Positions 12,480-37,030 of a DNA stretch of 64,000 nucleotides are shown here, one piece after another. The notes below the pieces were generated by a model. The model saw nothing but the letters and a program-made list of their open reading frames with translations, ran no database searches and was not told the DNA's origin. The translations under genes were made by a program, and so were the position numbers. How positions within the stretch are numbered: position 1 is the first letter of the stretch; each line of letters starts with the position of its first letter. The DNA lies in assembly GCA_010093605.1 (NCBI GenBank), contig MU004204.1, positions 142,959 through 206,958 of the forward strand. Reading direction: 5' to 3'. This DNA comes from Lophium mytilinum (taxonomy: Eukaryota).

Positions 12480-15400
12480 GGTGGTGCGTTTGAGAAGGGG
12501 TTGGTGCCTAGTGAAAGCTCGAGCGGAAGGTCATAAGCCAGGTGCGAAGGTGAAGGGCATTCTCCTGGCCGAGTATTGGGAAGACGTGAATGTCGAAAGG
12601 GCGATGCCGTGCCTCCGTCCAATGCGGGCTGCCGTGTTATCCCACCGCTCACTCGCCAAACAAGTCTATTGGCGGTCTCCCCAAAGTATCGGAAGCCTCA
12701 CAGCACTACCACCCCTCCACTCCCCAACACCCTCTTCACGACCACAACACGAAGCAGTTCTGAGACTGTTGCTGTCTCTCGAGACTCACCTTACTCACAC
12801 TAACCACCGCATGCGGCTTACTGACCTCCCGGGAGTTCCTGGCGAAGGCGGGGAACCGGCAGAGCTAATCCACCCGAACAGCCTCTTCATCCTCCATTGC
12901 TCATCAGAAGCCTCGTCCCAATGATTGGAGTAGCTTCCAAACCATCTCAAGCTATCCCTCAGCAAGCTGCTGCAGGGATAAGATGGTTTGGACATGCTGG
13001 TGTTGAGCCAAGTGCCATACTCCCCGAGCCGGCACAACGCAATCTGCCTCCGCACCGCCGCAGCACTACCTCTTCCTCGTTCTCAGCTTGAATGGGCACT
13101 TTCGACTCTTCTCCTGGATGCTCCCATCCAGCATTGACGCAAGCGGCATCGTTGACGCGTCCGTGTCGCCTCCTCACCTGACCTAGATCTCTAAAGACCT
13201 TCGGGCGTCTGCCGCACTGCAACATCGAGTCTTCGTCGCCGACGTTTCGAGTCAATGCCATATCCTACTCTCCCAACATCTCCCAGCCATCCTGTGAGGC
13301 ACCCCAGCGTCCTCAAGACAAGAAGACATCCGTCGAGAAATCCCCTTTCCTGGTGAGATGGCCCGTGCTGTGGTGCGCCTCACTGCCAGAAGTGCACCGC
13401 CACAGCTGTTGGCGAAGACTCGCTGCATTGGTCGGATCCTTCGCTGGGGGGTAACAAGTCGACTCGATCCAGGATATCTGTTGTTTGATACCGGCCTGCC
13501 CTAAATCGTATGGAGGGTCATCTGTTCTGGTGGACTTTGTGTTGAAACCTTGGGCAGAGACAGCTTCCGGTCTTCGATATCGGCATCCAAACCACATTTG
13601 TTTGCGCCCTGGGGATCCTCCGGGAGAGCAAATCGTTGAACCTTACACACTTCGTAAGAAGAGAGCACTTAGAATATCTCGACACCCTCCTGTCCCGTCG
13701 TGCGGTGGAAGATACACTTAGCATCGCGCTGGATAGGTAAGGCGTGGAATTGCAAGGCCAACGGTAAGATGAGATGTAAGGTTCCAGTTGTCCCTGGCTA
13801 GATGCCCTTCCTCCTCTTTACGAATTCTTAGCTCGTGCTATTTCTGCTGAATATATACTTTCACTCTAGATGCTTTCTTTCCGTTGCCCAGATCTATTCG
13901 ATTTCAATTTCCATTCTTTTTAGCTTTGCATCAAACTTCTTCGTCGACAAATCCTCCGCAGCCTCATAGATCTATTATACCTCAAAGAGATCCCTCTCTT
14001 TAAACCTTAGTCATTCCCAGAATCTGTCCGTATTTCTTTGCCGAAGATAGGTTCCAGTTAGCTTTTGGGGAGGATGCCTCTTGGATGACAACAGTCTGCA
14101 GTCCTTTTCTAACTCTTGCTCTGTTCCGATCTTTTCGACCACAAGGGAGGCAAACAGTTAATCTTTTCGTTGCTCAGTAGTAGTCTGTCTTTCCGGGTCC
14201 GATGGTACTCCCGTGACTATTTTCCTTCACTCGATGATTTCTGAACATCTCCTCGGATTTCTTCACTAGAGGTAGGTCCTCGTTCAGCTCCTAACACTAA
14301 GAAGCCTTCGGATCTTTCGAAAATTCAGTGGTCTCCTCTTGCTGCTTTACTTGCTCCATGGATGATGCATTTGCGTCCCGATGCATATTTCACTCGAGTC
14401 TCGAACTCCTCAAACCCCTTTCATATATCTCTTGCCAAGTTAGGTCCCTGCTCGTTCTCTTCACCATGCACTCCCAAGTTGCGCTTCTTGATCTCCCTGA
14501 ACATCCTGAGTCTTTCTCGGCAAAGGTGAGCCAACTCTATCTGTCTTTAGTAAGTTTCTTGCATCTCGTTTCATAAAGTCCTCGATTATCTCTTCGTATA
14601 TTCTCTTCGCCACTGTAGGTTTAGAGACTTCTCTATAGCCTCTCCAATGAACGTCTTCCATCCTGCAAGTCTACCTTTGCCAGTCCAATACAAAGGTAGG
14701 TGGCAGCGTAGAGTCATGAGTGCAGTTTCCATTTGATCCGTTTCAGATGTTCGTCATGAACAGATTTGCTCGCATCCTTTCCTCATTTTAGCCAAAGGCC
14801 CGGACGGTAAGTCGTCAAGTCGGCGAATTTTCTCCCTGGGCACCGATGGCTCCCAGGGTGGAGCTTAAGTCCATCGCTCATGATCGCATCAGTTCCTTCA
14901 TCTTTTGTGTTTCGACCTTTGATTCCGGGACTATACCGCAGTTAGGTGGATGCTTCCTTCGGCCCTGGACACCGATGGTCTCCAGGGGAAAACTCTGCAT
15001 GCTTTGCTCGATTTGCTTAATATTTTTCAATCGCTTGACGTCGAAAACTTCAACTCATTCCAAAATTCGAAGGGAAATCGGCTTATTGTTTCGTCCTGGT
15101 TACCGATGGTCTCTAGGGCAAACGTCTTTTCCTAACTACTCGCCAGCTTGATCGAGCTTCTCAACTCTTACGCGTCGAACTTCTCGTTTTCGTAGGACAG
15201 TGGTCCTTGGATCAAGTTGTCTTCGTGTTTGCCTGGCAGTATTCCTGATCTCTGAATTGCTAAATCTTGAACCCCTCGGCCACGGTTATTAAGGGCCATA
15301 CCGGGGCTAACCTCAAGTTTATTAGTAGTTGTCAGGACTGTTCGGCTCCTCCGAATCCTGCATAACCCTCTCTTTCTTGTCACATTGGACGTCTAGTCCT

Positions 15401-16199
15401 TCGTTCATCAGCTACGTTTACAGTCGTCGGTAGCTTCAGCCGCATCAGCACTTTCCCATACTCGTTTGGTCCCATGTTTCCTCGTCATCAAGTTCCCCAG
15501 AGTCTCAAAGATAGGCAATATAAACAGGAGGCACGGTCGGGGATAAGTGCAAAACCTGAAACTAGGGATCAAGGTATGCATGAAAGACCAAGGTGGGTGA
15601 GTGTCCTCTGGAGCCCCTTTTGATGTTGCTCTGCTCAACAGTCAGCATGTTGTTCGTGCTTCGATTTCTCTCACCATGAGTCTTCCGCCTTGCGAGTCGC
15701 TGTTTCTTCCTATCATGGCCTTCTCCTCTGCCAAAACTTCCTCGTTACTCTCGATCAGATGTGTCCGGCCGTGAGTGGCATTCTCCTTCAGTCTTGACAT
15801 TAGCAGGGTTTCTTTGCCTCTTACTCTCTGTGCTGAAGGCCCTTTCGTCCGCTCTTGAATGTCGTCTTGGGCTTGGACCCTTTTTAATGTTACTCAGTAT
15901 ACCCATTCGTCGTTGCTTCCATACCTCAAGGGTGTCAGCTCTCGCAATGTCCACATGGAGTCTCCCAGATCATGTGTTGTTCATTTCAGACTTGAGTCTT
16001 CTTTCCTACGTCGTGCAGCTTTCATATTTCTTAGTCGAGAGGTTTCCTGACTTTTGTTAGCAGTTGTTCTCGTTTTCGTAGGTCTTCTCTTATTCAGTTT
16101 CGGTCTCCGCGCCTTTCATTATTTCTCGTCTATGTGTTTCTGCGAAGAATCATAGTCTCGGACGCTACATGGGAATCCAGTCCCGAAGCTGGATCAAGA

Positions 16200-18180
16200 T
16201 GTTGAAGGTTCTGTATCGTCGTTAGTCTTGAAGACGCCAAAGTGGTGTTCTCGCTCACGTCTCCGGTTAAGATCGTCCCTGTGGCCCTGGAGAATGAGTT
16301 ACTGTGTGTCCCGCCTGGGTGGTTGCATCGACATTTCCCAAGCGGTGTGTTTTCGTCTCAGTTCCGCCCATACACCTTCCGAGGTCGTCCGGCAAGATGT
16401 CAACGCTCTAGGGAGAGCTCGAAAGTTGTGTCAGTGTGCTTTGAATAGATCCACGTTAGATGCCCGACGCGTGATGCGTAGGAAGTGTCGATGGTCTGGG
16501 CTCTAGTCCGAGTGATGAAGAGACGATGTCCAAGGATGAAGGAAAGCGCACGCGGACAAAGGCTCTATCGAGTGCATCGCTGCGAGATGAAGCCCAATCA
16601 GTGTACTACCAACGGCAACATCAGCCGAATGTTTCAGAGAAAAAATCTGGAAGAAATCGCAAATACAGAATTGCTCTTGCTCCCATGGAAGTTGTACTGG
16701 AGAACTTTTCAGCAAGAGAAGTGGAAGTTTGACTTCAAGGAGAGTTCTGGAGCAGGCCTCATGGTATAAAACGCGTCTCCCGTCTTGTAGCTCCCGGTCA
16801 AAAACGTCGATCGGTCAACCTTGCTAGCGCATCGAGGCCATAAAGCAGACACCATACCCAGCCGATCGCTTAGGATGTCTTCGTCGTTGTATGTGTAGCT
16901 CATCCGAACCTTCTGCTTGCAGTCATCATAGCTTGAGTTGCATATTATCAGGACCAGAAGTTTACCCATCGGTCCCTGCTGGAAGCCGAGACACTGGCGA
17001 GCGCGAGATGCGCTGGAACAGCTGAGGGCTATGTGCGGTATGTTGACCCGACGGCCGGCCGTGGAGGAGTCGACAATTGCCGAAGTTCGAGATGAATGGT
17101 GTTCCGATCGAAGTCGTGCCTGGAGACTAAACGAAGCCAAAGACGAAGATGATGTCAGCTAGGAGACCGCCACCTGAGTCTATGCCGATCAGGACTTTTT
17201 GGTTTCCCTCACGGTTCTTTCGTATCGACTTCGAAGTCCGCGCCTCCTTGTCTTGCGGGTACAGACGTCTTGTTACCGAGGACTGGAATGTTACCATATT
17301 CCCGCGCCATACTAATATTGAGGGTCCTGGCTTATTTTGAGGGTGAAACTCGGAAAAGGGGCATGTCTTCCAACCTAGGCCTGAAGTAACTACCGCCACA
17401 TAGAGCATGATTGTGGTCCTATCCAATTCCTAAGGGTCGTCTTCCAAGTTGCGGCGTTGGTATGCGCTGTCGAAAGCAGAAGTCCAGTGGTCGTTTGCCC
17501 TAGCCATTTTTTGATCTCAAAGATTGAACTTATTGTGGACGCATCTTAGGCAGGGTTCGTTGGACTCTGGATTCTAGGCCGTATCCCCAGTCTTGTTGTG
17601 GACCTCCTGGGTGTAGCCGCAGGTATCCAGGCTGCTCAGCGATTCCATCATCCCCGCCCAGCGAAGGCGAGGCATTGCATTGGGATCCAAAGAAAAGCTA
17701 GTAGGATCAGGAATCGTCAGTAAAGTACAAGGCCAACCGTCAGGGTTGAGCGCCAGCCTGTCGGCAACGCCAGGGGTTATCGATCGCCGCTTCGCGACCC
17801 ATATGTCTCGCGCAATGCCGTGGGACGCGCAACCGCGGTGCTCCTATGCCCGCGTCCAATGGAATTCTTCGTTGTCGCCGCCGTTTGGTCTGGGTTTGTG
17901 CACAGGCTGCCGGTAGTGGGTTCGCTGGCGTGGAGGTTTCCAGCGCCCGTTCATCTATAGCTTGGGCATCCTGATCCGTTCTGTTCTTAGCCGATACCGA
18001 GGACGTCAAGCTTCTCACGCCCTCCGGCCTACCCTTGGAGTCGCGTCGGTGCTGTTGTCCTCTAAGCTCGCCTGCCTCAGAGCTTAAAACTCATCGGCGA
18101 CGGCGCAAACTTCTCCTGCGCAAGCTCGATGTCCTTGGAAATATGATCTACGGTGACGAAATTAACCCTTCTCAGCGGGC
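16200..18180 (-). pseudogene. Heavily decayed DEAH-box (Prp43/Prp22-like) RNA helicase remnant
   Basis: Degenerate motifs occur in the expected order across stops and frameshifts: AACAQTQ (cf. ACTQPRR), QEVHNKTGDT (cf. DEAHERT..TD), PGPSILVW (cf. PGDILVF), EGNQKVLIG..DIIFVFGF, KQKV..YN, AFYTMRPAPEL..N..LLLLKS, STLIGLHLAAMHSIEP (HA2-like), HNFRALPRA, LILQGH..GVFKT. Confidence 0.5.
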
Positions 18181-19340
18181 CTGCGCGTGTTCTTTCGCGG
18201 TCGTGCTCTGTTAGATCCTCTGCAGCTCCGTAGATGTCGCGCCATGAGAACATCCCTCACCCGTGCGTGTTGCCTTCAGTGACGACTCTCTGCTTGCGTT
18301 TTGCCTCCGCGGGCTTCTCGCTGGGCCAATCTGTTCTCTCAAGTAAGGCGAGGGGGTAATGGAACCAGGAAGCGCGTGTGCTGTTTCGTGGAGGCGTCGC
18401 GGCCTCGTCATCGTAGCCTTAGGCTCTCCGAGGGCCGCCCCGCATCGCTGCTGGGGGTTATAGATTGGACACTTCGTACGGATACGCTCTCGTTGGACTG
18501 AAGAGATCGTCGAGAGCTGCTGCTGCGTCGAAGAGAGTAAGATTCTTCGAGTTTTGTGTGCTTGAGGCTGTCGCAAGACGTCTCCCCGAGTCGGACCCCC
18601 GAAACGTCCCCCTCGCCGCCGTGGCCGTCATGGTCCTCTTGCGTGGCGGAAACCAAAAGCGCTGGCTTTATTGAAGGCTGAAGAAGCTGGAGGGTCAGTA
18701 AAGAAGCGACCAGAGAAGAAATGGGAAAATCGAAGTCGTGGTGTTGCGGCTTGTCGTAGGCAAACACCGCCGTCTCCCGAAGGAGATATCACCGCACGGG
18801 CCGCATCAGAGCACATTGCGCTCAGCAATCAGCCATCGCGAATATGCTAGAGCTTTAAAACAGGCGCAATCATAGACGCTGCTGCGAATGACTACAGGCG
18901 ACATTGAAAAACTGAGCTACTTCGGCGATGCGGGAAAGCGAGTAAAGCGCAGTCGGCCTCCTCCTTGTTCAGCATACACAAGCTAGTCACGGTGCGAGTA
19001 GGCGATTTTGAAGGGATGATATGCATTTGATGGCGCTGAACTACGATTGAGGAAGGAAAATCTCATTTTTTTCTTTAATGCCGTGCTACGCTTTACAGAC
19101 TTCACGACACAGCAGCACGCATGGAATATATGAGAAGCGGCACTGAAACGTTTCATGATCTGCCTATCTACCTTGGGGACGCCGACGACGGTCTCATCCA
19201 GGTTCATGACCATTTAAAATCTCATGCTTTCAGCCAGCCAGCCAGCCATCGAGCTCAGAGCCATCTCCATCTCAATCTCAAACCTTGAATGGTATCTTCT
19301 GCATGTTGTATCAGTACCACATCCTCACCGTCGGTTATCA

Positions 19341-19451
19341 ATGCAACTTACAAGCTATTCGCATACCCGCGCGCCTCATGGATTTCCGTACTCTACAGCG
19401 CAACATACGAGCTGTCGGCGTATCCGAGCGCCTCGCGGATCTCCGTACTCT
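19341..19451. repeat. 57-bp tandem duplication (19 codons on the minus strand)
   Basis: caac..gct..cg..ta.ccg.gcgcctc..ggat.tccgtactct at 19344 and 19401. Minus strand reads STEIREALGYADSSYVAL* then STEIHEARGYANSL*VAL. Confidence 0.85.
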
Positions 19452-19943
19452 TAAGCCCCCGAATCTTCCGTCGCTTGGAGGTGTTTTGGTCTCCGGTCGA
19501 GATCCATTCGTCGAAGTCCGACACGAACGCTTAAAAGGACTGTAGGCTCTGAGCCAACGCCATTTCGCACCATGCCATGATAGGATGAGTAACAAGTATG
19601 CTCGTTGATTCCAAAGCTCAGCATCTACCTGCAGCCTGAAGTCGAGCAGAGGCATTGAAACTGAACAGACTGTCTGAGACAGCCTTGGACCGGTGTCAAG
19701 TCTCCCACATCCCAACCAGAGCTACAATGCTCGTCATTACCGACCTCTTTGTGTCTGACATGAGACTCAATCCGATATCCACCCATCCATCAGCTGCTCG
19801 CTCGTATAGCAAATCTTGGTGATGTACAGTCGTAACAATTTTGGCGTGAGCGATGCCCTTGCGGTGCAGAATCGTGCCTTTTTCTTTCTTCCCGTACCAA
19901 AGACTAATGGCGCCGGAGGAAACGAGCACGTTCAATATTCGCT

Positions 19944-20048
19944 CCGGCTGACGAGTTAGTCCTTCTTCGTCGTTAGTAGATGCGCGGTCTGGCATGCCCT
20001 CCATACGCAGAGCCACTAGCGACGAAGAAGGAAAGACTCGTCAGCCGG
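19944..20048. repeat. 34-bp imperfect inverted repeat with a 37-nt spacer
   Basis: ccggctgacgagttagtccttcttcgtcgttagt (19944-19977) versus the reverse complement of 20015-20048, ccggctgacgagtctttccttcttcgtcgctagt: 30 of 34 positions match. Confidence 0.9.
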
Positions 20049-20224
20049 CACTCTTGTCGCGGGCGCGCTTGGGCTCAGGCTGTGGGAGGAGTTCGAAGTT
20101 GGTGATTGAGGTCCCACCGTGTCGAAGGGGCGACAAGAAGGCCTGGCAGTCATTAGCATAAGGCCCTTGCGAGGAGTGAGAGAGCCACTCACTTCGCCTT
20201 CACCAGCAGCTCGTCTCCGATTAT

Positions 20225-20960
20225 GCCGACTTCATTACGCCTTCGCGTGCTCGCATCCAGTTTTTGTTGCCTCGGAGGGTGTTGATCTGACCGTTGTGAG
20301 CAGCCCATCGGAGCGGCTGAGCACGGTCCCAGCTGGGAAAGGTGTTCGTCGAAAACCGTGAGTGGACCAACGCGAAGTGTCCCTCGTAGTCCACAGAGAC
20401 CAGGTCAAAGTAGTACTGATAGACTTGCACAGGTTGCAAGCTGTCCCTTGTACACAATGTTCTTGTTGCTCAACGAGCAAAGGTAGAACCAGTTTGAGGA
20501 TCGATGGTGTGTGTCGCCCGCTTGCGTAGGTCGTATAGCTGTCGCTCGAAACAAGATTCCTCAAACTTCTGGGCGAAGCTTCGTTCGGCTGCTTGCCGCT
20601 ACTATAGGCCGATTTCAAGACGACGAATGGCTGGAGAATGACAGGCTTTCGGGATAATGCCGCGGACCCCAACAAGGTTGAGCCTCGAGGGACATCTCGA
20701 GCGTCTGGGCCAAGCGGCCGAGCGAACCGAGCACCGATGAGATCACGTTGCATAGTAGGGACCGACCTATTTCGCAGCTTAGCTTCTTGAAGCTTCACAG
20801 TTTATGGAGTCTTCTTACCATCGCTCACAATCTTATGGCAGGCCTTGCCCTTGATATGGCTGTGTCCTGTTAGTGGCCTCGTGTCTTGACAGAGACAGAG
20901 GCGGGGAGAGACTCACGCAGCAACTCCAATCCCGCAGGTGTCTTTAACGTCCTCGGATAT
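20225..20960 (-). pseudogene. GLT1: Glutamate synthase (GLT1) N-terminal amidotransferase-domain fragment; introns retained, internally deleted, frameshifted
   Basis: KDTCGIGVAA [intron 20860-20916] HIKGKACHKIVSD [intron 20767-20818] GRSLLCNV..., then PDARD fused to [72 protein letters not shown]...[47 protein letters not shown]. It then ends abruptly. Confidence 0.93.
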
Positions 20961-21715
20961 TGTTCGGCACGAGGGAGCAAGACCGGTCCAGCTTGAGAAT
21001 CTGAGACACCAGCTGCAGGTCATGATTCTGGACGATGAAGCCACCCCTCTGACCGCCATTGTACGGCGTCGTGGACAGGTCCATCGGCCAGAATGATGCC
21101 CTGAACGATGTCGACGGCTCAGCGTCCTCAATCGCACCCAATCTGCCGTGCCAGAATGGGTCGTTCAATTCGAGGTTCTTCAGGTCTAGCATCTTAGGCG
21201 GCATACCTTGAAAAGCCATGTGGTGGCTTACGGCGGTATCTGATCTGTAAAGCACACAACCATTCGAGGGTTCGGGGATGGCCATCAGAATAGCAAGCTC
21301 GAGTCCCAAGGGAAGTCCAGAGCACTTGATACCAGTCCATCTGGAGGCACTAGCGCCACCATCGTGCCCGGAGCTCAGAAGGTGATCAGCATTCGCCTCA
21401 GGGATGCGACGGTACCAACTCCAGGGGAGGGTCGAGATCTCGGGCGTCTGAGCCAACGTCGGTGTTTGTGCCTCTCCTGCTTCTTGAACATCACATACCT
21501 GACATTGCCTTCCTTCTCTTGAGGCAAGCGGGTCTCGGCGATGGGATGGATCACTTCGTTGACTTGGCGGCTGGAAACGATGCGGTTCCGGTTACGGGTT
21601 TGCATGACTTCGGCTCGCTCTCGCTCTTATTGCCGGTAGAAAAAAAGCATTTCGTCCCGAATAGTGGGATGGGTACTGGCGAGGATGGCACAGAGCTTCC
21701 GGAGCTTCAGGTTCG

Positions 21716-21856
21716 TTCTATGGCTTTAGCATCTGGGTTTGATCGGGAATTTCTGTCGTAGAGGCAGTCAACGTCCGTCATCAGGAATAGGTAGTCAGTC
21801 TGGACCATGCCGGCGGTGATGGCAGAAAGAGTGTCGTTGTCGCCAAACTTGATCTC
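21716..21856 (-). pseudogene. PRO1: Glutamate 5-kinase (PRO1) internal fragment A
   Basis: [47 protein letters not shown] contains the FGDND and LxTDVD motifs of glutamate 5-kinase; flanks are unrelated. Confidence 0.92.
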
Positions 21857-22989
21857 CCCACGACCTGCTGGGTAGCAGGATTGAGATTTCTAGCATCTAA
21901 GCCCACGGCGTGGAGACTCGCAGTGGTTCTGACGTGCAAAACGATTGTCAGATGTGGACGTGGTGGTAGGAGAGACAGCAAAACCAGAAAGGCGCAGGAA
22001 AATATGGGCAGTCGTTTAAGCGAGCTAAGCCTTTTTGGGCGACCAACACCACTATCCTTTCCCGGAGGTTTCAAATCCGGACGGAGCCCACAGAGACCGT
22101 CTTGAACAGTTAAGTTCAGCTGTTCTACCTCAGACGACATCATCTATAGTTCAAAAGGGACGTCGTGATGATCGTTTCTTGAGGCTCAAGTGAGCAGAAA
22201 GTCTTCGCCTCTAGATTTAGACGTTCAGTCACTGAACATGGATGGAGGATACGGCGACATCTTGCTTGACAAAGAGTTATATTCTGAACCGTATCAGCCC
22301 GTACAACTAGCCCAAGTGTCCTGCAAAAGCGTGGGGCTCCACGCAAAGGCGTCGCCCAAAAAAGTGAAAAAAAGCACTACCCTCCCCACTGAGGACTCGA
22401 ACCCGCCCAAAAAGAATTCGAAGCTACTCTTTGATAAAGCGTGTCATCCTTAGTGCCGGGGCCATGCTAATCTTCTATGGATCGTTTCGAGTTATGACAA
22501 GTGCCCGAAGGCGAAGTGCGTTAACTTTGCACCAAATATATACCACAACAAGCGGGCAGGCCGTGGTCAGTGCGCTACTGGTAGGCATATCAACCGCGAG
22601 AAGTTCGGCAAAACGTTCGAAAGGTAGCTGCGGCGAGTTTTTAACGCTTATGTAGTGCGTGTGAGCTGGAAAAGGTCTTCACTCTTTACACCGAGATGTA
22701 GTAATGGATGGCGCATTTTGCATGCTTTTCGTTAGCACTTCTACAGACACCTTCTCTACGTCTTTATCTACTAGATACTCGGTCTCCAAGCCACGTTCAC
22801 CATAGCTTGATCTTGTCTCTTTAGAAAGGATAACCGTCACGTAAATGCCATTGGAGTCGAGATGCTGTAATACTTCTACCAAAAGCGCCAGTAGGCATAG
22901 TCTTCTTCCACCATCCTTTGCCTCCGTCTACTGCCACCAACGTTCAGAGCCCCACCGTCCATAAATGGCGTCGATCTTAGGCCTGTATG

Positions 22990-23580
22990 TCAGGCGTATG
23001 GGCGCATCACCTTGACATATTCTTGAACTCTCTCAACAACGTCTTCAGCACCCCAGTCGGCGTGGAACATCGAACTCAAGACCATTGTCGCAAATCCCAC
23101 TCCCGAGCCCACCTCCCTAGCAGGGTTTACTGTACCGCAAGCCATCAGGCTACAACACCGTACGTCGATGTCCCGCAGGATTTGTCCGAGAGTTTGGCCC
23201 ACTCCCTGCATGTCCTCGATGAGCTCGAGCAGCTGATCGTGTAAGAACTCAGTTGCCTGTAGCCTGTTCGCGTTCTTGGCCGCCGTGATGTGTACCTCTA
23301 TGTCTCCTCCCATCGCTAGTGCTAAGAGCATCGCCGTCTCGATCGCATGTCGGTATCCACCACTAGCTTCCAGTATCAGGCTGTCGATCGCGTCGTAGTC
23401 GACCCTGTCCTCTTGAGTTGCCCGCCCCGCCTCGACGCGGGCTGTCAAGTTGCCATACCAGGGCACTGAACGGCGGTATCTGGTCTTGGTCACTTCATGC
23501 AAGCGTGTGAGCGCGTCGTCGGCTGTCGTGGGCTGGTACACGCCCGTGGCAATGTCTCGGATGATCTCTACTGCCGCCAT
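22990..23580 (-). CDS. Hypothetical 196-aa protein, apparently intact, no recognised family
   Basis: Open ATG-to-stop frame with protein-like, helix-favouring composition. A candidate 5'-UTR intron lies at ~23612-23685 (gtacga...actaac...aag). Confidence 0.6.
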   Translation of the reverse strand: MAAVEIIRDIATGVYQPTTADDALTRLHEVTKTRYRRSVPWYGNLTARVEAGRATQEDRVDYDAIDSLILEASGGYRHAIETAMLLALAMGGDIEVHITAAKNANRLQATEFLHDQLLELIEDMQGVGQTLGQILRDIDVRCCSLMACGTVNPAREVGSGVGFATMVLSSMFHADWGAEDVVERVQEYVKVMRPYA

Positions 23581-24469
23581 CTTGAGAATCAGGGTCGAGG
23601 GGGACTGGCCGCTTGTTTTGGGTTAGTAAAACAACGCCAGAGGCTAGTTTGGGGCGGACTTGGGCTATCGGAAGTTCGCTCGTACCTTTAGAATGCAAGA
23701 CTGGTTGGTACTTGGCGATACTAGCCTCGTGGCACTGTGCTGCTCAAGGCCTCTGTGCCGTTAACACTGCGGACGTAAAGTTAGGGCGAAGGATCCCTCG
23801 ACCTGCGCTGCGGACTTTCTGAAGCTTCCTACGCACCTTCGGAAATCAGAGAGCTGGACTGCCTTCACGGCCCGCAGATGAGTGTATAACGGGTACGAAC
23901 AACCTCGAAGGGCGCGGAGTAGTGTTGGTGATGGTTTTCGGGTCGTAGCAAGACCTGGGCGGAGATATCAAAGTGGGTTGTGGCCAGCTCGTCTCATTAT
24001 TGGCGGTACTTCCGCCGAACCCGCCATTTGCTACCCAATAATTCATTCACCTCAAAGCTGCTCAGATTGCCCCTCATACGTCAGCACCCTACAATCTAGT
24101 CTGCTATCGTATACTGGTCATTCTACATCGTCATAGCATCAAAGCGAGATTCTTCTACATCACAGTTCCACGTCACCAGGTCAATATGAGCATGTAAAGG
24201 CAGAGTAACGCATATTCAATGGACAATCTTAATTTCGAAGGTCAACTATCCACAAGATACGTCTCTGCGCTAGCCACTCAATGTGAGTGTTACCAGGTGA
24301 CACCGACGCGGAGGTCGCAGAGTCCGATTTCGTCACCCAACCCACCACCAGTGCTGTAGAGAGCTGCAGCCAGCTTCTCTCTACAACAGATTGGCGCGCT
24401 GATGGTAGGCCGACCTGAGCTCAGCATGCCTCCACGGTGGTCCTCGGAAGGGGCTGCGTGGAGGGTGCG

Positions 24470-25035
24470 TCCTCGCCCAGGTCTGGTTGGAATACAGGCA
24501 GGGGCTGTATTCCGGCATGTACTCCGCAGACCTCCGTAGAGGGGTGCATCTTCGTTCATGCATAATGACCTGACGCTCATGGGCTCCGCAGGCCTCCGAG
24601 GAGGGGTGCATCTTCGCCCATGAATCGCCAGTTTCAATTACATCTTTTTGGCCGTGACTGAACAATCCTGACTCTGCGTCGACGCCCCAAGCACGTCTTG
24701 CAATGTCGGATGGAGGGGCTGTGAGGTAATCACCGCCATCAGTGCCGGCAGTGCTGCAGCCGGCAGTACTACCGGTTTGAAGGACAACACTGATGACGGG
24801 CCATGGGCTCCGCAGGCCTCCAAAGAGGGGTGCATCTTCGCCCATTAAGAACTGTTCTCGGCCTCTGCGTTGACGCGGCAAGCACGTCCTACAAGGTCGA
24901 ATGGGCGGCTGTGAGGTAATCACCATCATCAGTGCCGATAGTACCGCAACCGGCAGCACTACTGGTTTGGTTGACGAGACTGATGACGGGTAGGCTCAGC
25001 AGGCTTCCGAAGAGGGGGCTGCGTCCTCGCCCAGT
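24470..25035. repeat. Compound tandem repeat (two ~190-bp units plus shorter ~65-bp units)
   Basis: gg(g/c)ggctgtgaggtaatcacc..catcagtgccg at ~24715 and ~24904. (g/a)ctccgcag.cctcc...gaggggtgcatcttcg at ~24521, ~24583 and ~24807. Confidence 0.85.
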
Positions 25036-25474
25036 GGATTGTGAGTCTCGGTGTCGCTGTCGAAGCTGAGGGCCGTGGTGTCGTCTTCCGGCGCTGCTGG
25101 CTGCTGTGCTGCCCGATGAGGAGTCGAGAGGAGCATGTCGTAGAATGAGGTAAAATTCGGCGCGATGTTTCGCACACACTTCTCGCCAACGAGACCAGTG
25201 CGTTGCTTCAGGAGTCTTATGATCCGCTGAGTTAGCTAAGCGTGCTTCCAGATGGGTGGAAGGTACTAACTTTGTGGTCCTTGTTGTGCGAAGCAGGTTG
25301 ATTCAGCTTCTATCTGCCTGCAGGTTGCACTCTTCTTTGGCCCCTTTGTCAATTCTGGCTTCCAATCGATTCCTTCACTATGACTAGTCAGTGTCGGCAC
25401 GAAACAATCTTCGAGATGCACCTACTTCTCAGCCTTTCCCACGTCGTAACGTCTCACAGTACGACACTGCCATG

Positions 25475-25671
25475 ATCCCTACGGAGGTGGCATAGCGAGC
25501 TGCCACAATCTTGGTCGACATGCCGCCTGTCCCAAGTGCTGAGCCGGCGCTAGAGACTTCCACTTCGAGATCGTCAATGTTCTTCACCACCTTTATGACT
25601 TGAGCATCTGGGTTTGATCGGGGATTCTTGTCGTAGAGGTAGTCAACGTCCGTCATCAGGAATAGGTAGTC
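25475..25671 (-). pseudogene. PRO1: Glutamate 5-kinase (PRO1) internal fragment B
   Basis: [29 protein letters not shown]...SSAGSALGTGGMSTKIVAARYATSVGI includes the GTGGMxTK signature. It overlaps fragment A by ~75 nt with high identity. Confidence 0.93.
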
Positions 25672-25714
25672 TCGACACAGTGGCTAGCCATAAGAGGCTC
25701 GAAAGAAATGGCCT

Positions 25715-25925
25715 GTTGCAGACTGGGCTGGTTTGCCTGGCGGTGGCTGTCGGTGGCGGACGGGCAAGGCTGACAGGCGACGGCGGTGATCTGATTTCTC
25801 GTGTGCGATTTCTGCTTGGAGGCGGCGCGGGCCTCGGTCTGCTCCCATGGCCCGGCTCTGCTTCCCCTGGCGAGCTCTGGCGGGGCTGGCAGGATTGGGC
25901 TGTCGGCGAGGCTGCGTGTTGCTAG
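25715..25925 (-). pseudogene. Possible Zn(II)2Cys6 transcription factor N-terminal remnant
   Basis: PILPAPP...KQKSHTRNQITAVACQPC, then TSPVCNR in another frame, resembling ACxxC...PxCxxC. The cluster is incomplete and abuts PRO1 fragment B. Confidence 0.45.
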
Positions 25926-28900: not shown

Positions 28901-29145
28901 AGAGTTGGCGATCAGAGAAGATTAACATTGAGTGTCTCCAGATGTGACGGGGCAACATATGCGCGAGTACTCGCAACAAGTGTCAACCCCAGTTCAGTTG
29001 TTTTGATTTGAAACAACACATAATCGAAAGTCATCATTTCACGAGTTTAACAGAGAAATAAACGGCGACTTACTTCGATTTGCATGCTCTACTGGACCGT
29101 AATGGTCACAATTCATAGTGCGGATATTGGGCTTCCTGCAAATGC

Positions 29146-29705
29146 GTCGTTAGAACGTTCAAACAAGCCAGAGGATAACGGAGAAACGGAATTGGAAAGG
29201 GGCTCAGAACGGAGAAGAAAATCTCGGGGATTTCCGCATGTGTAGCGCCAAGAGAAAAGTCGAAGACAGAGGTAGCTTCAATCGAACTGCCAACGGCCCT
29301 CCCTCGACGCTTCGGATTTTGTGAAACATTTTTTATCATCATAGAAAGAAGGAGGTTCAAAAGAGAGGGTTCGACGACTTGCCTTGCCGAGTACCCACAG
29401 GGGCTTGGTGTCCACGATGTTCATACGCCATCCTTCGTGATACGGAGATCGTATTTCCTACGTTGCCACGTCAGAACGTTCAAAGTAGCCGAAAAGTAGC
29501 AAAGAGGTAGTAGCGAGATGGGTTTCAGAACAGAGAAGATTCTCCGCCGAAGATGCGTTCCACATGTTTCACGCCAAGAGAAAAGTCGAAGACAGAGGTA
29601 ACTTCAATCGAACTGCCAACGGCCCTCCCTCGACGCCTCAGGGTTTTTTCTTTGTATCATCATGAAAGAGGTGGTGGATGGGAAGATGCTTCAACGACTT
29701 GCCTT
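29146..29705. repeat. Direct duplication, 326-bp offset
   Basis: Core cgccaagagaaaagtcgaagacagaggta(g/a)cttcaatcgaactgccaacggccctccctcgacgc at ~29246 and ~29572 has 1 mismatch; flanks are more diverged. Confidence 0.9.
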
Positions 29706-29840
29706 ATCAAAGACCCCAAAGCCATGGTAGCCGGGTTATCCATAAGTCTACAAGCCTTTCCAGAACATATTAGACCGTAGGTGGGAGGAAGAAGAAAAAC
29801 TTGCCCGGATTAAAGCGCAAGGAAGGCCTGATCGAAAAAT

Positions 29841-30194
29841 GTGTGGTCCCACCGCTTACCCACCCAGGCGTATAAGGTGCCACACGTCCAATTGGTTATG
29901 TTGATGGTCCAAGCTACCATGAGTGTGTCAGCCAGCGCTTGTGTGAAAGGGGGCAAGACGTGACCGTGAGTATCCTTCAAGCAGCTTCGAGAAGGTGTGG
30001 TCCCGCCCTTACCCCACCCAGTCGTGAAAGGTGCCACACATCCTGTTCGTAGATTGCTTTGCTTTCCTGCCCTGCGTCAGCTTGTACTTGGGTTGGAACA
30101 GAAGGGAAGACTTAGCAGGCTGTAGCCTCTAACGACAGATATTGATCGAAGTGTGGTCCCTCCGCTTACCCACCCGTCGTGTTGGGTGCCACAC
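29841..30194. repeat. Three ~45-bp units spaced ~155 bp apart
   Basis: gtgtggtccc..cttacc(c)cacc...ggtgccacac at 29841-29885, 29995-30039 and 30151-30194. Confidence 0.85.
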
Positions 30195-30232
30195 ATCCTG
30201 GTCGAGAGCATTCGTGCACTGGAGGTGCTGTT

Positions 30233-30735
30233 TGGAAGTTGCTGACGCTATATGAAGTGTGTCAGCCTGTTCTTGAATGTGGTATGGGAATGATGGTGGA
30301 ACGAGTTTGCCGCTCAGAAAGTGCAAGAAGTGTACATGTGCGGATATCGCATAAACGTTGAAAACTACCAATGTAGGATCATCATGGCGGGGACTGTGGA
30401 CCAGTATTGCAGTGCAGAGGGGATAAGAGAGTAGACTTAGCTTTGTCGTCGAAGGAGTCGCAAGCATTTGTGGACTGGAGATGCTGATCGGAAGTTGCAG
30501 TTCGGAAGTCGTTGAAGCTATATGAAGTGTGTCAGCCTGTTCTTGGATATGATATAGGAATGATAGTGGACCCAATTTGCCGCTCAGAAAGTGCAAGAAA
30601 TGTACATGTGCGGATATCGCATAAACGTTGAAAACTACCAATGTAGGATCATCATGGCGGGAACCGGGACCACTGTTGCAGTGTGCAGAGGGAGGAAGAG
30701 TGGAGACTTAGCTTGATGTTGTCGAAGAAGTCGCT
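30233..30735. repeat. Tandem duplication, 270-bp offset
   Basis: gctatatgaagtgtgtcagcctgttcttg...gcggatatcgcataaacgttgaaaactaccaatgtaggatcatcatggcggg at 30247 and 30517. ORF 30129-30641 shows the repeated peptide. Confidence 0.92.
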
Positions 30736-31171
30736 AAGCCTCGAAGAAAAGGTGGACCCGTGGCCGGCCGAACTGACCGCCTATTAATTGCTATCGAAAG
30801 GGCATCAAGCAGATACCAGCATGCCCTTGAGCCCGAGCGACGGTGAAGGGGAATGGGCCCGCTCAGTGCCTGGTCTCACTGCCGTTTGTAAATATGCCGC
30901 GCTTCTATCTTGGTGTAGGAGGGTGGAGGGAGGAAAAGAGAAGATGGATCTCAGCTTGACTCTGTTGTATCGGAGGAGGTGTACCGGAGGATTTGTGGAG
31001 CGATGCTCATGCTGCCATGACACGAGAGACTTTCTACAAGCTGAAGAGTGTCAGTATCGATCTTCTCAGTTTGAACATGGTATTCAGAAACGAAACAAGA
31101 AGTCCCGGTCAGACTGCCTCTGTATTCCAAAGCCCACTATCCTAATGCAGGGCAGGTGCTTCTCTGTTTGA

Positions 31172-31705
31172 ATCATCGCCATTGTCGGCTTGTCAGAGTT
31201 GGAAACTGGTCGTGGGCGGCCCCTCGGTCCGGACCCACAACGTCATCATGGACATGGAAATAGCACAAGTCTTATTGTACGAGAAGATTGGTGACTTACA
31301 GCTGTACGATCGGGTTGGTGGATCGGAGGACGTGTCGAGCGATACGTATGCCACTACGATATAAGATGAATTTCTGGAAGTTGAAAAATGTCAGTATCAA
31401 TTTTTGCAAAGTGATTGTTCGAAGCAGAAAAGAAGCAAGTAACGTTCTCAGACAAACTCATATCGTAGCGAACCAGTTCCTAGTGACAAGAGCGGTGCTG
31501 TAATATGTTGATCTTCTTCATCTCGCCATTGTCGGCTTTCGAAAGTTGAAAACTAACCACACAAGTTGGAAACTTGGAAGTTACCCCCGATGGGCGGCCC
31601 CTCGGTCCGGACCCAAGCGTCATCATTGTAACGTAAAGATAGCTCAAAGCTCAATGAAAGAGAGAAGACAGTGACTTACCAATGGTAGACCATGTTGGTG
31701 GGTAG
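31172..31705. repeat. Diverged duplication containing a minus-strand splice-donor-like site
   Basis: tcgccattgtcggctt...gggcggcccctcggtccggaccca...gtcatcat...gtgacttac at ~31176-31299 and ~31523-31679. Confidence 0.8.
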
Positions 31706-34539
31706 GATCGGGCGGCTTGTGGTCTGGACGTGGCGTTGAACTGGTTGAGGCCAGATGACTAACTTGTTCAGCGACAACAACACCTGTGTGCATCAAACGT
31801 CAGCGGAAGAAAGAGAAGATAGAAAGGTCGAACAACTGCTAGGTTTGGAATTGTGGGGGCTTCTTGACTTGAGGCGAAGTGGACAGGTCGTTCTGTCGCA
31901 CGGCCAGGCCAAAGCCTAATCCACAAGACCAACTGTTGCAGGAAGCTCAAGGACTCACACACCTTGGAGAGGAAGTACCACTGCTGCAGACCACGTTCCA
32001 CAATCTTGTGGGCGAACGGTGTCCCTAGGCGTGCAAGGCTTGCAGCCCATTTCGCGGCTGGGTGGAGGCACGTCAACGCCACGGCGACTTGCTGGTGGAT
32101 GAGGAGACAAGCAGCGCCAGAGCAAGTGACGAATAGACTTACTTGCTATCATGTCTCGGAGTGGTAGGTGCAGAGAGGGGTGCAGAACGTTGCTATTGAA
32201 GGAGGAGGAGGAGGAGGTGGTGGAATAAAATTGGTGTGGGCGAGCAACGAGCTCGCGGAAAACCAAAACAAGGGCTTCACGAGACGAGCTAACTCGCAGT
32301 TTAGCCGGGTCACAACTAGGCTCCAGCGCTCACACTCTCTTGTGTGGCTACGTCATTGCCCTGCCCAAGTACACATTGTACTGAGCCGAAGCACTGTCCC
32401 TGAGGCAGGGCAGTAGCGTCACTGATTGACTGCACTATACACAAGATGCTCTCAGGCTTGTAGCTATCTGTAAGTTCTGTAAAACTTGGACTTTCAGCAT
32501 TGGGAACCAAGAAACAGTGCTTAAGCTTGGGTGTTGAAGTTGTTTTCAGCTATAAGCCAGCTTACGCCGTCGCGTCGTTCCGTGGCTCCAAGCACAGTGC
32601 AGTCCGTTTCACGCGATCTATGAGACTTCTCAAGGGTGAAAAACGCTCATTGTACTATTTTCAACTATAATGGAGCGGTTGCCTAGCATATTCTGGTTTC
32701 TAAAACTCTGTGTTGTGTTGCAACATCTACGAGGCCGAACGCGCCTCGAAGTTAATCGTACTTCCTCGTGTTTCGGCACTACGTCAGTTCTGAACTACGA
32801 CCTCGTCTTATCACTACTCAACTCACTGGCGTCCAAGAATGAAGGCTTATAAGACACTCAAGCGCCGTCCAAGAAAGCATTATACTGCACAGAGACGAGT
32901 CACCCGCCCCTGAAATTGAAGCATTACCGGAGAATTTGCGAGTTCAAGCTTACCAGCTTCACATTACAGCTCAGGTTAGTTCGGGCCTCGGAATATTATC
33001 TCAATCCTTTCCTGTTGATGTTCTCCTGGGCGCCGATGAGCCAGACGAGCATCGAGGTTGACGCCAGCCAATGGACGTTGCATGGTCCCTGGCTAGCACC
33101 CTCGGTAGCGAGCACGTCTCCAGACCCATGGATCACTACGAGCATCAAAAGCCAGCAAACCGCCTGCGTACTTCCGTCTATAAGCCATACTTGCAGGGCC
33201 ACATTCGCACGCCGCTATACTGAGGTAATGTGGATGTGGGCAGGGGCGCGAAGGGAATTGGGTTGGTTGTAGCTATGTAAGCAAATCGATTCATGAAAAC
33301 AGTACTTGATGGAGCACGAGTGAATTAGGACTTGCTGCGATAATCGAGAGTATTGGTAGCTTGTCCAAAGGTTTGAATACGCTTACAAACAGCTTGATTC
33401 CATTTCGTAAGATATGTATATAGTTTTTCGGTCCTATAGTACGAACAAAAACAGGACAATAGTAAAATCGACTGTAAGGAACTATTCCGTGGTGCCTCTT
33501 CGGCACAACCTTCACTTTTCTCACCAATCTAAGCCTTTCAATCGAACACCCACCCTTTCCCCTCCTAGCCGATTTTCCTCGTCCTGCAGCGATCCTACCA
33601 ATATCCCTCAAAACCGCATACAATCCTAAGATCCGCAGGAATGCCCTTTATCACCCGCCTCCACTCCTGCCCCTGCGCCCCCATTCTCGTCACCAGCCAC
33701 GCCCTTGGCGTCTTCACCAAAATCACACAGCAGGCCCGCAAGTTCGCAGACGCAGAGCTCAATGATCCCTACAACCAGGAGCATCTTGACGCTACATGGA
33801 CGGCCAATCAAGAGCAGAGAGTATGCAGAATTAGACACGCGGCGGCGAAAAATCCATTGCTCAAGATGACGACGGGAGAGATATTTCGGTTGAGCAGCGT
33901 GGAGTAGTTGACCACGATGAAGAGGAGGGCCGATGTTGAAGGTATATTACTACGGGAATCATTTGCTAGCGGATGCTAATGATGAGCCGTACATATCAGG
34001 CGGTAGGATGATCTCAGCTACCTACGACAAAGGCATTGAGTGGATGTCCTCGACCTATTGAATTTTGAGTATACAGAATGGGCATTTGCGTCTGCTCAAA
34101 CCTGGGCTGAGCTGGATGCACTTTGAAGACGGCGATGACCTACGAAGACATACCTGACAATGGTCTTTTCAGCTGGGCAGCATGGTAGGAGCGAAAGGAT
34201 GATAATTAGGGGAATAGAGAAACCACGGTCCTACTGTGTGGCGTTTCGAGTCTTTGATCTCGCTTTTGATTACAGCAAAACGATTTAGAGCTAGTAAGAA
34301 GTCCGTTTGTTAAGCTGTTTAGAGATTCGAAGAGCTGCTCCCAGTTGTAGCCCGCAGGTAGCGTCGACAACACAGCTCGTCGCCACCTTTGCAGTATCAC
34401 CTTTTCTTCCCGGAAGGCCCTCCTCTCAGTTGGAAGAATCGCACATAGTTGTCCCTATGAGACAAATGCAGTAAACGAAATATGAAGCCACAAAGCATAA
34501 GTATAAGTACCTTGTATTGCTCTCTCGAGTGGAGAGTCT

Positions 34540-34690
34540 AGGATCTCGGGCATCTGAGTCAACGTGCATGCAGTCTTTCGGCGTCCGGCATGAACAGGCT
34601 CTAGGATTTGCGTTGACCGCGTCCGTAGGGCATAGAGCTGTCGCTCGAAGGGCGTTTCATCGAACTTCTGGTTGAAATCTTCATTAAGCG
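34540..34690 (-). pseudogene. Second, scrambled set of GLT1 micro-fragments
   Basis: NEDFNQKFDETPFERQLYALR (34622-34687) matches 20524-20590 at the DNA level. It is followed by VDSDARD (~34543-34563), which lies upstream of FERQLY in native GLT1. Confidence 0.7.
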
Positions 34691-34997
34691 TAGAAATTAC
34701 GTCCTTCTCGATGCCAATTTACCATCCTTTACCGCCGAGTGGTTGCCAATGCCAGTCAGCGTTTCCAAGAACAAGGTAGTGGATCGACGTCTGCTATTGG
34801 GAAGATGTTTGACCCAGAAACTCATGGCGTTCCTTGGTGTCCCTAGCATCAGCTTCGAGGCAGCTCGAAATGATGGCAGCCTTACGCTCTTCGCTCCTCG
34901 GTTCGAATACCATCTCGAATGGCAGCGGCTTCGTGATGATCTCGGAGGTCGTCTTCAGTCTCGAGGCTGTAGAGGAGCCAGAAATGGCTTGCATCTT

Positions 34998-35475
34998 ATC
35001 CGTCTCCAGGCGCCGTAATCGATGCAGCGGGCAGGTAGATTGCAATTCGACCTTGCGTTCGCCGGTTAGCTTGTCAACCATGACAAGAGCCATGTAGCCT
35101 ACACAGCAGCGGACATTGCTGGATTCGGACCCAGATCGGAAGATCCGTCTCTAGGCGCCGTGGTCGATGCAAGTGATGAGCAAGTACATTGCTGTTCAAC
35201 CTTTCGTTCGCCGGTTAGCTTCTCAGTCATGACAAAAGCCATATAGCCCACGCAGCGGCGGACATTGCTAGACTCGGGTCTAGATAAGAAAATCCGTCTC
35301 TAGGCGCCGTAGTCGATGCAATTGGTGGCAGGTCAACCGCAATTCACCCTTTCGTTCGCCGGTTAGCTTGTGAAGCTTGACAAAAGCTATACAGTCCACA
35401 CAGCAGCGGACGTTGCTAGGCTCGGATCCAGATCGGAGGGTCTTCACTCTTTCTCTAGGCGCCGTGGCCGATGTA
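34998..35475. repeat. Tandem array of ~145-157-bp units (3 full plus 1 partial)
   Basis: atccgtctc(c/t)aggcgccgt..tcgatgca...cgttcgccggttagctt...cagc.gcggac.ttgct at 34998, 35143 and 35292, with a partial copy at ~35452. Confidence 0.9.
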
Positions 35476-37030
35476 GTTTTCTTCGCGTCGAGGAAGCAGG
35501 GGCATTTTGTTTGAGATTGAACCCGAACAGCAATCAAAATGCCGTATTGTCGATTGGCCGTCAGACGTCCGTCAACCTGTCCACGAATGGTATGCTGGCT
35601 CGACGTCTGTGCAGCTGGGAAGCTGGACGGAGGAACTCCTAGATTCCGCATATCTTTGTGATATAATTCTGGTCACTTGAGGATGATCGCAGCCTCGCAC
35701 TCTCCGCTATTTGGCTCGACCGGCGTTCTGGAAGGGCAGTGGCTTCGTGAACAGCGCTACCGGTACAGTCGTCTTTTCGACTGCGGGTAAGACGGGATCC
35801 TAGGAGTGGCCTCGTGATAAGCTCGGAGGTCTGCTTCATCAAGATGTGAATCTTAGCGCCAGGAAGCGGATACGTCTTATGTCTGAGATCGACGGTCCAC
35901 AGGAAACCAAAAGATTTAGGGCCGAACCTTAGGCCAGTATGCCCTGCGCCAGAGGGTGAGTAGACTGGCATATCTGAGCCTAGATAGAAGCAGTCGGGGT
36001 TTAGGGCGTAAAGATTGCAACTTTTGGAATCGATATTCGAGAAAGCACTCGCTGGGAATGCTGTTGAAGCTTGATGCAAGGGCTTAGGATGTGACCGCCT
36101 ACGGTAAGGCGAGGTGAGGTGCCGAAAGGACATTGATGAATGTCGTGGTCAGCAAGACGAAGAATGCTGAAGTGGAGGTCAGTATATGCAGTGAAGGATC
36201 CGGGTTGTTCGACTGGTGGGATACATACCATTGCGGCATCCCATCACGAACGATGCTCTTGTCCGGTAGAAAGTGATGACGGTTGAAGATAGTTAGGTGG
36301 CAGCGAAAAACCCCGGTCTGCTGCTCATGCTGGAGCTGACTGAACAGTACAAGAAGTCTCGTGAGGTAGGTGAGGTATGAGTAGACGTTGGCAATGATGA
36401 AAGAACTCTGAAAGAGAGTGCCGCTCTTAGTGAATGACTAGAAGTAATGAAAGGCTTAATTGAGTGGACATACCTCGAGTGATGGCAAAGGCTTGGTGGC
36501 AGAAAATGAAAGGAGAACTTGAATGGGAAGGAAGACGACGGTGACGTGCGAAGGCGTTGAGTCTTCATTTTAGTTGTTTATGTGAAGAATGGGAGCATGA
36601 GATGGAGACCTCAATATGACGGGAAGTAACAGTTGACTGGTAGGTTCTCATCAGTTCTTCCGAAGGACGACGTACTCGGCTGAAAGGTTGTCACTTACAC
36701 TTTTTTTTTTACCAAGGCTCACCCCGACCTTCTTCTGCATGTATTCAGAAATTGCAAGGAGACAGTTGAGATCTCTCGCAATTAGAGGGAACCATCTTCA
36801 CGGGAACCATCACATGTCCTGGCCCGTGATGACCATCCCCAATCTGCCTGCTTTTTCTGTTCTCGGTTTCGAAGGTACGGCGCATTTGGAGGGATAATCC
36901 TTTCGGAGGATTGAAAGGCAAATATGTAGCCCTAACACCATCGTGAACATGAGACTGATGATATTGTTTACTCGTATAATAGCCCACACTCCAGGAAAGC
37001 CATCACAGACCGGCCATAGAACACAATCCG

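Follow-up and report, generated by a model that had tools for sequence, protein, structure and literature searches.

We analysed a 64,000-nt stretch of the Lophium mytilinum genome (assembly GCA_010093605.1, contig MU004204.1, positions 142,959 to 206,958), hereafter called the window, whose own coordinates are used throughout. With a GC content of about 0.52 and genes interrupted by short introns, the window has the look of filamentous ascomycete DNA. Our subject is a block of about 24 kb, or 37% of the window, that lies between SLX4 and a gene for a protein of 231 amino acids (aa), both on the minus strand, and that carries broken partial copies of the housekeeping genes GLT1 and PRO1. SLX4 at the left border is intact (9582..12479; open reading frame (ORF) 9582-12530). 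It matches the Pfam family Slx4 (1.1e-16) and is 100% identical to its own 966-aa model, with the start codon at 12479. The 231-aa gene at the right border occupies 37034..37726 within an ORF of 37034-37783, ends at 37031-37033 and lies inside a spliced RNA contig described below. No Pfam family matched its product, and a resemblance to small ascomycete Tubby-C-like/DUF6593 proteins (Atlas feature score 0.96) is offered as a lead only. The initial annotation had the block bracketed by SLX4, reaching to 12479, and by a gene at 37031, and the ORF, Pfam and own-model evidence upholds these borders.

For the identification of gene pieces, 148 stop-to-stop ORFs with a length of 70 aa or more and a further 127 minus-strand ORFs of 40-69 aa were compared with Pfam, which returned only GATase_2, AA_kinase and a weak Glu_synthase match within the block. 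Profiles built from 11 GLT1 and 70 PRO1 relatives were then run over the window (domain E<1), and full-length relatives were also mapped by tblastn. The profiles gave six GLT1 and four PRO1 matches, all ten of which fall on the minus strand of the block, the rest of the 64 kb having none, and tblastn and Pfam agree with this outcome. Read along the minus strand, the series starts with PRO1 residues 170-238 (25465..25671; AA_kinase 4e-10, tblastn identity 81%, profile 7.8e-40) and PRO1 residues 150-196 (21716..21856; tblastn 94% over 47 aa, AA_kinase 5e-10). It continues with GLT1 residues 1077-1114 from the FMN domain (21292..21405; tblastn 66%, E 1e-9; profile 1.7e-11; Pfam Glu_synthase weak and below the cut-off), which are out of order since they stand upstream of the N-terminal pieces. 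The N-terminal GLT1 residues ~32-70 (20700..20996; sensitive tblastn) follow and are colinear with residues 144-301 of the amidotransferase domain (20227..20699; GATase_2 5.8e-34, or 9e-37 in a read-through frame; tblastn 60-73%, profile 3.3e-61), which contain a frameshift at 20571. Residues 1729-1763 from the C-terminal reductase part of GLT1 (20056..20166; tblastn 54-62%, E 2e-7 to 3e-6, weak profile match) come next. The series closes with PRO1 residues 59-76 (19478..19531; tblastn 67-83% over 18 aa, profile 19472-19528), which adjoin PRO1 residues 451-475 across a 7-nt gap. This last piece, including a partial tandem copy of itself, occupies 19343..19473 (profile 19393-19473) and is 92% identical over 25 aa, at 19396-19470, to the L. 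mytilinum glutamate 5-kinase P0121; the direct repeat, 19343-19394 and 19400-19451, has 79% identity.

A small GLT1 piece (residues ~108-128) lies apart from the others at 34602..34682 (minus strand); it is a 74% copy of 20497-20577, and its tblastn and profile matches are weak. Where the initial annotation had claimed at least six GLT1 and PRO1 pieces, all identifiable ones on the minus strand, at least nine can be counted and the strand is as stated. The pieces are disabled by the frameshift at 20571 and by in-frame stops, and their lengths are 18-158 aa of proteins of ~2100 and 502 aa. The GLT1 pieces have 54-73% protein identity to relatives that closely agree among themselves in these regions, and of all copies PRO1 150-196 looks the youngest. 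The first 78 nt of the PRO1 170-238 piece repeat 21719-21796 with 92% identity. We considered whether this 78-nt repeat (21719/25594) brackets an insertion as a long target duplication and rejected the idea, since the order of the PRO1 pieces, with 170-238 upstream and 150-196 downstream, is opposite to the prediction. At 25763..25916 a piece of a further locus is present, overlain by contigs of the sequencing runs X3 (depth 38) and X1 that show eight differences and depart at both ends; it matched no Pfam family. As an observation apart, the best match (86%) to the GLT1 piece of the block is P0001, a 307-aa model from another assembly (an 87,671-nt contig; unrelated ENA entry) in which an odd N-terminus is fused to GLT1 residues ~150-400, and which is possibly a further partial GLT1 copy, from a different fungus.

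Two introns are present in the N-terminal GLT1 piece. On the minus strand, the first runs from 20916 to 20860 (57 nt, GTGAGT..ACTAAC..CAG) and the second from 20818 to 20767 (52 nt, GTAAGA..GCTAAG..TAG), and excision of both yields one open frame that matches the GLT1 N-terminus. Judged by colinearity with the proteins of relatives, the GLT1 parent would carry introns at these sites. Since the copy retains both introns, its template was DNA or, at best, unspliced RNA. For PRO1, contigs of another locus in two DNA runs overlie 21716-21857 with 12 differences and depart from the window at both ends. Eight of these differences are transitions, four in each direction, and hence the 150-196 piece bears no bias of repeat-induced point mutation (RIP). 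Translated by hand, the departing contigs give VVESIEDLEA at one end and TLAVT at the other, the very residues found next to this stretch in P0121. As the source contigs continue as PRO1 coding sequence, the cut falls within an exon. P0121 is encoded on a contig of 1.45 Mb and the proteins of the window itself on one of 342 kb, so that the PRO1 source is probably unlinked. At 25519 the contigs of the DNA runs also depart from the other PRO1 piece and continue into sequence belonging neither to the window nor to PRO1 coding sequence, and one contig joint goes back 77 at 21933>21857, both of which hint at more PRO1-fragment copies or variants elsewhere in the genome. Taken together, three of the four features of a non-processed pseudogene fragment were found directly, namely similarity to a functional gene, kept introns and a disabled or truncated frame. 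The fourth, an intact parent in the same genome, is suggested indirectly and for PRO1 alone, by the contigs that continue as PRO1 coding sequence and by P0121 on another contig.

Besides the protein-coding pieces, the block holds a full-length, intron-free copy of the U6 small nuclear RNA (22412..22514, minus strand). It scores 61.6 bits with Rfam RF00026 over model positions 1-105, against a gathering score of 44, but its ACAGAGA box, invariant in functional U6, reads CCAUAGA in the model alignment, and we therefore file the copy as a probable pseudogene. The depth of this site is that of a multi-copy sequence in DNA and RNA runs, and the other genomic copies diverge from the window at 22463. 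A tRNA had been considered for the multi-copy spot at 22.4 kb; ARAGORN found none, and the Rfam match is U6.

The U6 copy is the best argument for a capture from RNA, in which a reverse transcriptase or RNA-templated break repair would have copied unspliced GLT1 and PRO1 pre-mRNA and mature U6 with template switching, like the U6-chimeric retrocopies of LINE-1. Such a route would explain a full-length, intron-free U6 copy from which the other genomic copies diverge at a given point, and it agrees with the fact that the recognised pieces all derive from transcribed parts of genes and all lie on one strand. However, the two introns kept in the GLT1 copy are the hallmark of a DNA copy, and to invoke unspliced RNA for them is a special plea. 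In addition, the ends of the pieces have no poly(A) tracts, no reverse-transcriptase domain was found in 12600-37001, and the U6 copy may just as well be a decayed variant of an intron-free gene. We regard an RNA template as unlikely.

One of the runs, X3, is an RNA run by software guess, no run being recorded as RNA, and because three of its intron joints are exact GT..AG joints we conclude that it holds cDNA. Its contigs describe a spliced minus-strand RNA at 33356..37799: a contig of 3739 nt with a depth of 179 spans 34152-37799, and the stretch down to 33356 is added by a second contig and a weak joint. The introns lie at 36637-36698 (62 nt), 36408-36473 (66 nt) and 36167-36228 (62 nt) and have the minus-strand borders GTAAGT/GTATGT..CAG. 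The RNA begins before the 231-aa ORF and extends about 3 kb past its stop codon, through the small GLT1 piece and through three tandem units of ~149 nt (34998..35473; TRF period 149, 3.0 copies, 80% matches; mean column identity 78%). From the 231-aa gene it reaches about 3.7 kb into the block if the end at 33356 is counted. All three introns are 3' of the stop codon, and beyond the 231-aa frame the ORFs reach at most 169 aa from stop to stop. The RNA is thus either a long, intron-bearing 3' extension of the 231-aa transcript or an overlapping, separate, spliced non-coding RNA; if it is a 3' untranslated region with introns, the 231-aa transcript is a likely target of nonsense-mediated decay. 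Three further X3 joints with short sides and unusual ends (22463>24316, 29456>29702 and 34052>34152) were not used, the last being a possible fourth intron. Farther left, low-depth unspliced X3 contigs cover 17800-22449 with both GLT1 introns retained and represent RNA or DNA carry-over. The parts that X3 leaves uncovered (23136-23802, 24470-25136, 26471-27804, 31140-31806 and 32474-33140), among them most of the 196-aa gene described below, were read neither as silence of that gene nor as a sign that DNA carry-over is lacking.

These contigs raise the question of a functional locus, that is, a long non-coding RNA or an exon nursery that regulates GLT1 and PRO1 through antisense or small RNA or feeds chimeric genes. 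The spliced RNA, with its GLT1-derived piece and its 149-nt repeats, speaks for a function, as do the low-depth contigs across the GLT1 and PRO1 pieces and the textbook knowledge that the two parents are consecutive users of glutamate. Against this, no frame is conserved, the pieces have decayed with stops and frameshifts, no sign of conservation or of small RNAs came to light, and the low-depth X3 contigs are possibly DNA carry-over. A function of the block seems improbable to us, about as much so as an RNA template. A related and more far-reaching possibility is an ongoing, transcription-linked process in which short pieces of co-expressed genes and U6 are copied from nuclear RNA or from contacting DNA and inserted into transcribed spacers in the same sense as the local transcript; the spacers would act as nurseries, where most captures rot and some become spliced exons of chimeric genes. 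Were this true, the pairing of GLT1 with PRO1, which represent successive glutamate steps, and the intron-free U6 beside intron-bearing pieces would be footprints of co-transcription and of splicing at the time of capture. We hold this to be slightly more doubtful still.

Comparison of the window with itself by blastn gave 17 repeat pairs, 16 direct and one inverted. Fourteen of the 17 are in the block, 13 of them direct, with identities of 70-92% and periods of 57 to ~380 nt, plus longer-range copies at 3.9 and 14 kb. The seven or more local duplications reported for the block by the initial annotation are thereby borne out, some ten short direct ones being counted. The sole inverted repeat in the block (19944..20048) has 43-nt arms and a 19-nt loop, and the DNA contigs break within it at 20008. 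Direct duplications cluster at 24516..25033, with periods of 62, ~190 and ~224 nt, and form a run at 29204..31707, which consists of 29204-29705 (period 321), 29829-30204 (three units of ~154 nt), 30201-30739 (period ~260, 83% identity) and 30978-31707 (two pairs). In the three ~154-nt units the linkers have drifted and, on the minus strand, a box of ~50 nt is kept, GTGTGGCACC..ACG.C.GGGTGGG..GGGACCACAC; its ends, GTGTGG and CCACAC, could pair, and it has three matches in the window against none expected by chance. A tandem duplication is also found outside the block, in the spacer between an amino-acid permease gene and SLX4 (8895-9275, 87% identity, period ~120-230 nt), which shows that short direct duplications are not restricted to the block. 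The base composition of the block (GC 0.515, TpA/ApT 0.74, composite RIP index -0.47) equals that of both flanks. Hence the earlier observation by eye that the block is not AT-enriched was correct, and as neither AT content nor RIP indices are raised the block does not resemble a RIP-degraded repeat.

In the middle of the block lies an intact minus-strand gene for a protein of 196 aa (22993..23580; ORF 22993-23622), which is 100% identical to its own model P0241. No Pfam family matched this protein and an Atlas search was without usable match. Among 1.84 billion representatives, its only full-length homologue is P0242 from Mytilinidion resinicola, which has 200 aa and aligns end to end with 38% identity (E 1.6e-31); in addition, two long proteins of 900 and 1176 aa match it in eight and six stretches, respectively. 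With 38% identity between the two species, as opposed to 76% for the neighbouring SLX4 (P0246), the 196-aa gene appears to be either very fast-evolving or a paralogue. The statement that the block has almost no intact gene therefore goes too far, given the 196-aa gene and the U6 copy inside it and the neighbour's spliced RNA over the right 3.7 kb, although the rest is indeed gene-poor.

The homologue in M. resinicola has a bearing on the age of the locus. P0242 (KAF2815901.1/XP_033582865.1) and the SLX4 protein P0246 (KAF2815903.1/XP_033582867.1) are encoded on the same contig of 3,067,355 nt. In GenBank and RefSeq the proteins of an annotated genome are normally numbered in gene order, and if this holds here, the 196-aa homologue and SLX4 are separated by a single gene, KAF2815902. 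This neighbourhood suggests that the block, in its centre at least, is ancestral to the locus, and it argues against one 24-kb insertion.

An insertion is what the initial annotation had proposed, in the form of cargo of a degenerate element of the Starship, Helitron or Pack type, and we took up the idea as a degenerate Starship, Helitron/Helentron or Pack-type element with terminal inverted repeats (TIR) that inserted between SLX4 and the 231-aa gene with captured pieces on board. Helitron and Pack-MULE captures are described as short pieces of several unrelated genes that share an orientation, as is the case here, the capture took place at the level of DNA with introns included, and the block is gene-poor between ordinary flanks. 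To search for element proteins, 15 read-through frames with stops as X, covering all six frames of 12600-37001, were compared with Pfam at E up to 0.1. The outcome was again only GATase_2, AA_kinase and weak Glu_synthase, and these frames contained no DUF3435 captain, no Rep/helicase of Helitrons, no DDE transposase and no reverse transcriptase. Neither were DEAD, Helicase_C, HA2 or Zn_clus domains found in them. Two remnants claimed for the block thus remained unconfirmed: for the probable DEAH helicase ruin, a pattern search gave one isolated DEAD tetrapeptide, and for the Zn2Cys6 remnant it gave no Zn2Cys6 cysteine pattern. A PDB sequence search with one minus frame of 12602-16000 had no matches.

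The structural evidence points the same way. In the window self-comparison the block edges showed neither terminal inverted repeats nor long direct repeats, in accordance with the earlier statement that no mobilising gene or termini were found. DNA depth is ~141-173 over most of 17.8-37.8 kb, as expected for single-copy sequence, with an excess only at the gene pieces and U6. A Starship thus lacks its captain and terminal repeats and would, moreover, have to accommodate a central gene that neighbours SLX4 in M. resinicola. A Helitron or Helentron lacks Rep and helicase domains and has single-copy depth, its ends (5' TC, 3' hairpin-CTRR) not having been searched for. For a Pack-MULE or Pack-TIR element the sole inverted repeat, at 19944-20048, is internal and has adjacent arms. 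With no element proteins, no termini, single-copy depth and a probably ancestral centre, the mobile-element reading is reduced to a very small share of the probability, and the view of the block as an accessory insertion is not supported.

The least likely explanation is an assembly artefact, a chimeric mis-join of GLT1, PRO1 and U6 reads, which we consider scarcely credible: Logan contigs do break at 20008, 21273-21302, 21783-21823, 22410-22457, 25670, 29305 and 30360-30632, but these breaks sit where repeats should split a de Bruijn graph, the pieces are ~8% different from the source copies and hence are separate loci, and the contigs of the two DNA runs, made by a different assembler, tile 17800-37799, agree with the window at every letter of the listed pieces and break only at repeats, a tiling that argues weakly against a mis-join as these runs may be the source reads of the assembly.

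The reading that we favour, with moderate confidence, is that the block is an old, syntenic, gene-poor spacer in a fungus of the Mytilinidiales that became the site of ectopic partial gene copies, which were later shredded. According to this scenario, partial, non-processed copies of the unlinked GLT1 and PRO1 genes, a U6 copy and one piece or more of another locus would have entered the spacer in a few events, by error-prone double-strand-break repair or by replication template switching from distant donors. The copies would never have been functional here and would have decayed neutrally and without RIP. Internal deletions may have trimmed them, and short direct duplications of the slippage or template-switch type may have reshuffled and multiplied them, while one ancestral small gene, that of 196 aa, survived in the middle of the block and the right end came to be a long, intron-bearing and apparently non-coding 3' extension of the 231-aa transcript. 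We infer the repair or replication mechanism, the number of entries and the neutrality of decay. The one shared strand would follow from few entries and from the direct nature of the later duplications. The colinear succession of GLT1 residues 32, 301 and 1729 suggests that the first copies were longer, and the pieces that are out of order call for some degree of rearrangement or template switching. Repeated template-switch repair at one site, the other proposal of the initial annotation, is compatible with our data and belongs to the likeliest family of mechanisms, given DNA-type copies, a cut inside an exon, scrambled order and direct duplications; much of the pattern, however, fits erosion of longer copies equally well.

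Several points weigh against the spacer scenario. The colinear runs (GLT1 32-301-1729, and PRO1 59-76 to 451-475) fit erosion of longer copies as well as they fit piecewise capture. With the junctions seen from the window side, microhomology and template switching at them are hypothetical. GLT1 and PRO1 both act on glutamate, a pairing not expected of a random dump. Some 16 kb, at 12.9-19.3 and 26-33 kb, matched nothing that was searched. At the PRO1 150-196 piece the right-hand loose end matches P0121 for five residues only and then diverges, which could reflect an intron or yet another copy. Finally, the synteny depends on one gene and on the order of accessions, the homologue with 38% identity could be a paralogue, and the interval between SLX4 and the 196-aa gene in M. 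resinicola is known only as holding one annotated protein, KAF2815902.

The flanks of the block carry ordinary genes. An amino-acid permease (5.5-7.3 kb) lies on one side and an M28/TFR-like peptidase (41.1-43.7 kb), an alpha/beta hydrolase (44.3-45.3 kb), a photolyase (50.9-53.2 kb) and an MFS transporter (57.4-59.5 kb) on the other. The other gene-poor stretch of the window, 45.3-50.9 kb, served as control; it contains part of an intron-split Fung_rhodopsin gene and no captured pieces. The Fung_rhodopsin domain (1.1e-11), at 49.7-50.0 kb on the plus strand, is visible only in a read-through frame and probably belongs to a membrane-protein gene that is split by introns and overlooked by simple ORF lists.

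On its own, the block is unremarkable debris of the genome, and its main value is one of correction: it is in all likelihood not Starship- or Helitron-like cargo, and two of the remnants claimed for it were not found. It is also a well-resolved case, with retained introns, an in-exon breakpoint and a syntenic anchor gene, and without RIP or transposons. If mosaics of this kind proved frequent genome-wide or were still forming, they would offer a natural system for the study of how capture by template switching or repair seeds exon shuffling and new genes in fungi without active RIP. In the literature as far as our search reached, we came across no work on gene-fragment mosaics for either Lophium or Mytilinidion, and we do not claim that none exists.

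Several known systems share features with the block. In mammals, LINE-1 produces U6 retropseudogenes and U6-chimeric retrocopies, which the block resembles in having a full-length but disabled U6 beside pieces of other transcribed genes; in contrast to these, no LINE, poly(A) or target duplication was seen in the block and the neighbouring GLT1 copy keeps its introns. Capture of gene fragments by Helitrons and by Pack-MULE/Pack-TIR elements occurs in plants, bats and some fungi and sometimes gives rise to transcribed chimeras. Here the likeness consists in the DNA-level copying of short pieces from several unrelated genes, all with the same orientation, whereas the block has no element protein, no termini and no extra copies, and its centre is probably ancestral. 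Fork stalling and template switching (FoSTeS), microhomology-mediated break-induced replication (MMBIR) and multi-donor synthesis-dependent repair likewise place short segments from distant donors out of order and produce local direct duplications. These are, however, usually single young events with microhomology at the joints, while the pieces in the block are of different ages (70-94% protein identity) and their joints are known from one side. The dispensable chromosomes of Zymoseptoria tritici, also a Dothideomycete, contain duplicated fragments of core genes and are comparable in their scattered partial core-gene copies, but the block is located between conserved core genes on a contig of 342 kb. 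The closest known kind is that of duplicated, non-processed pseudogene fragments, the 'gene relics' of fungal intergenic and repeat-rich DNA. Unlike these relics, the block is free of RIP and transposable elements, single-copy and placed beside a syntenic gene, and it contains a U6 pseudogene and dense short direct duplications; with them it shares partial DNA-level copies of housekeeping genes, kept introns, broken frames, scrambled order and neutral-looking decay.

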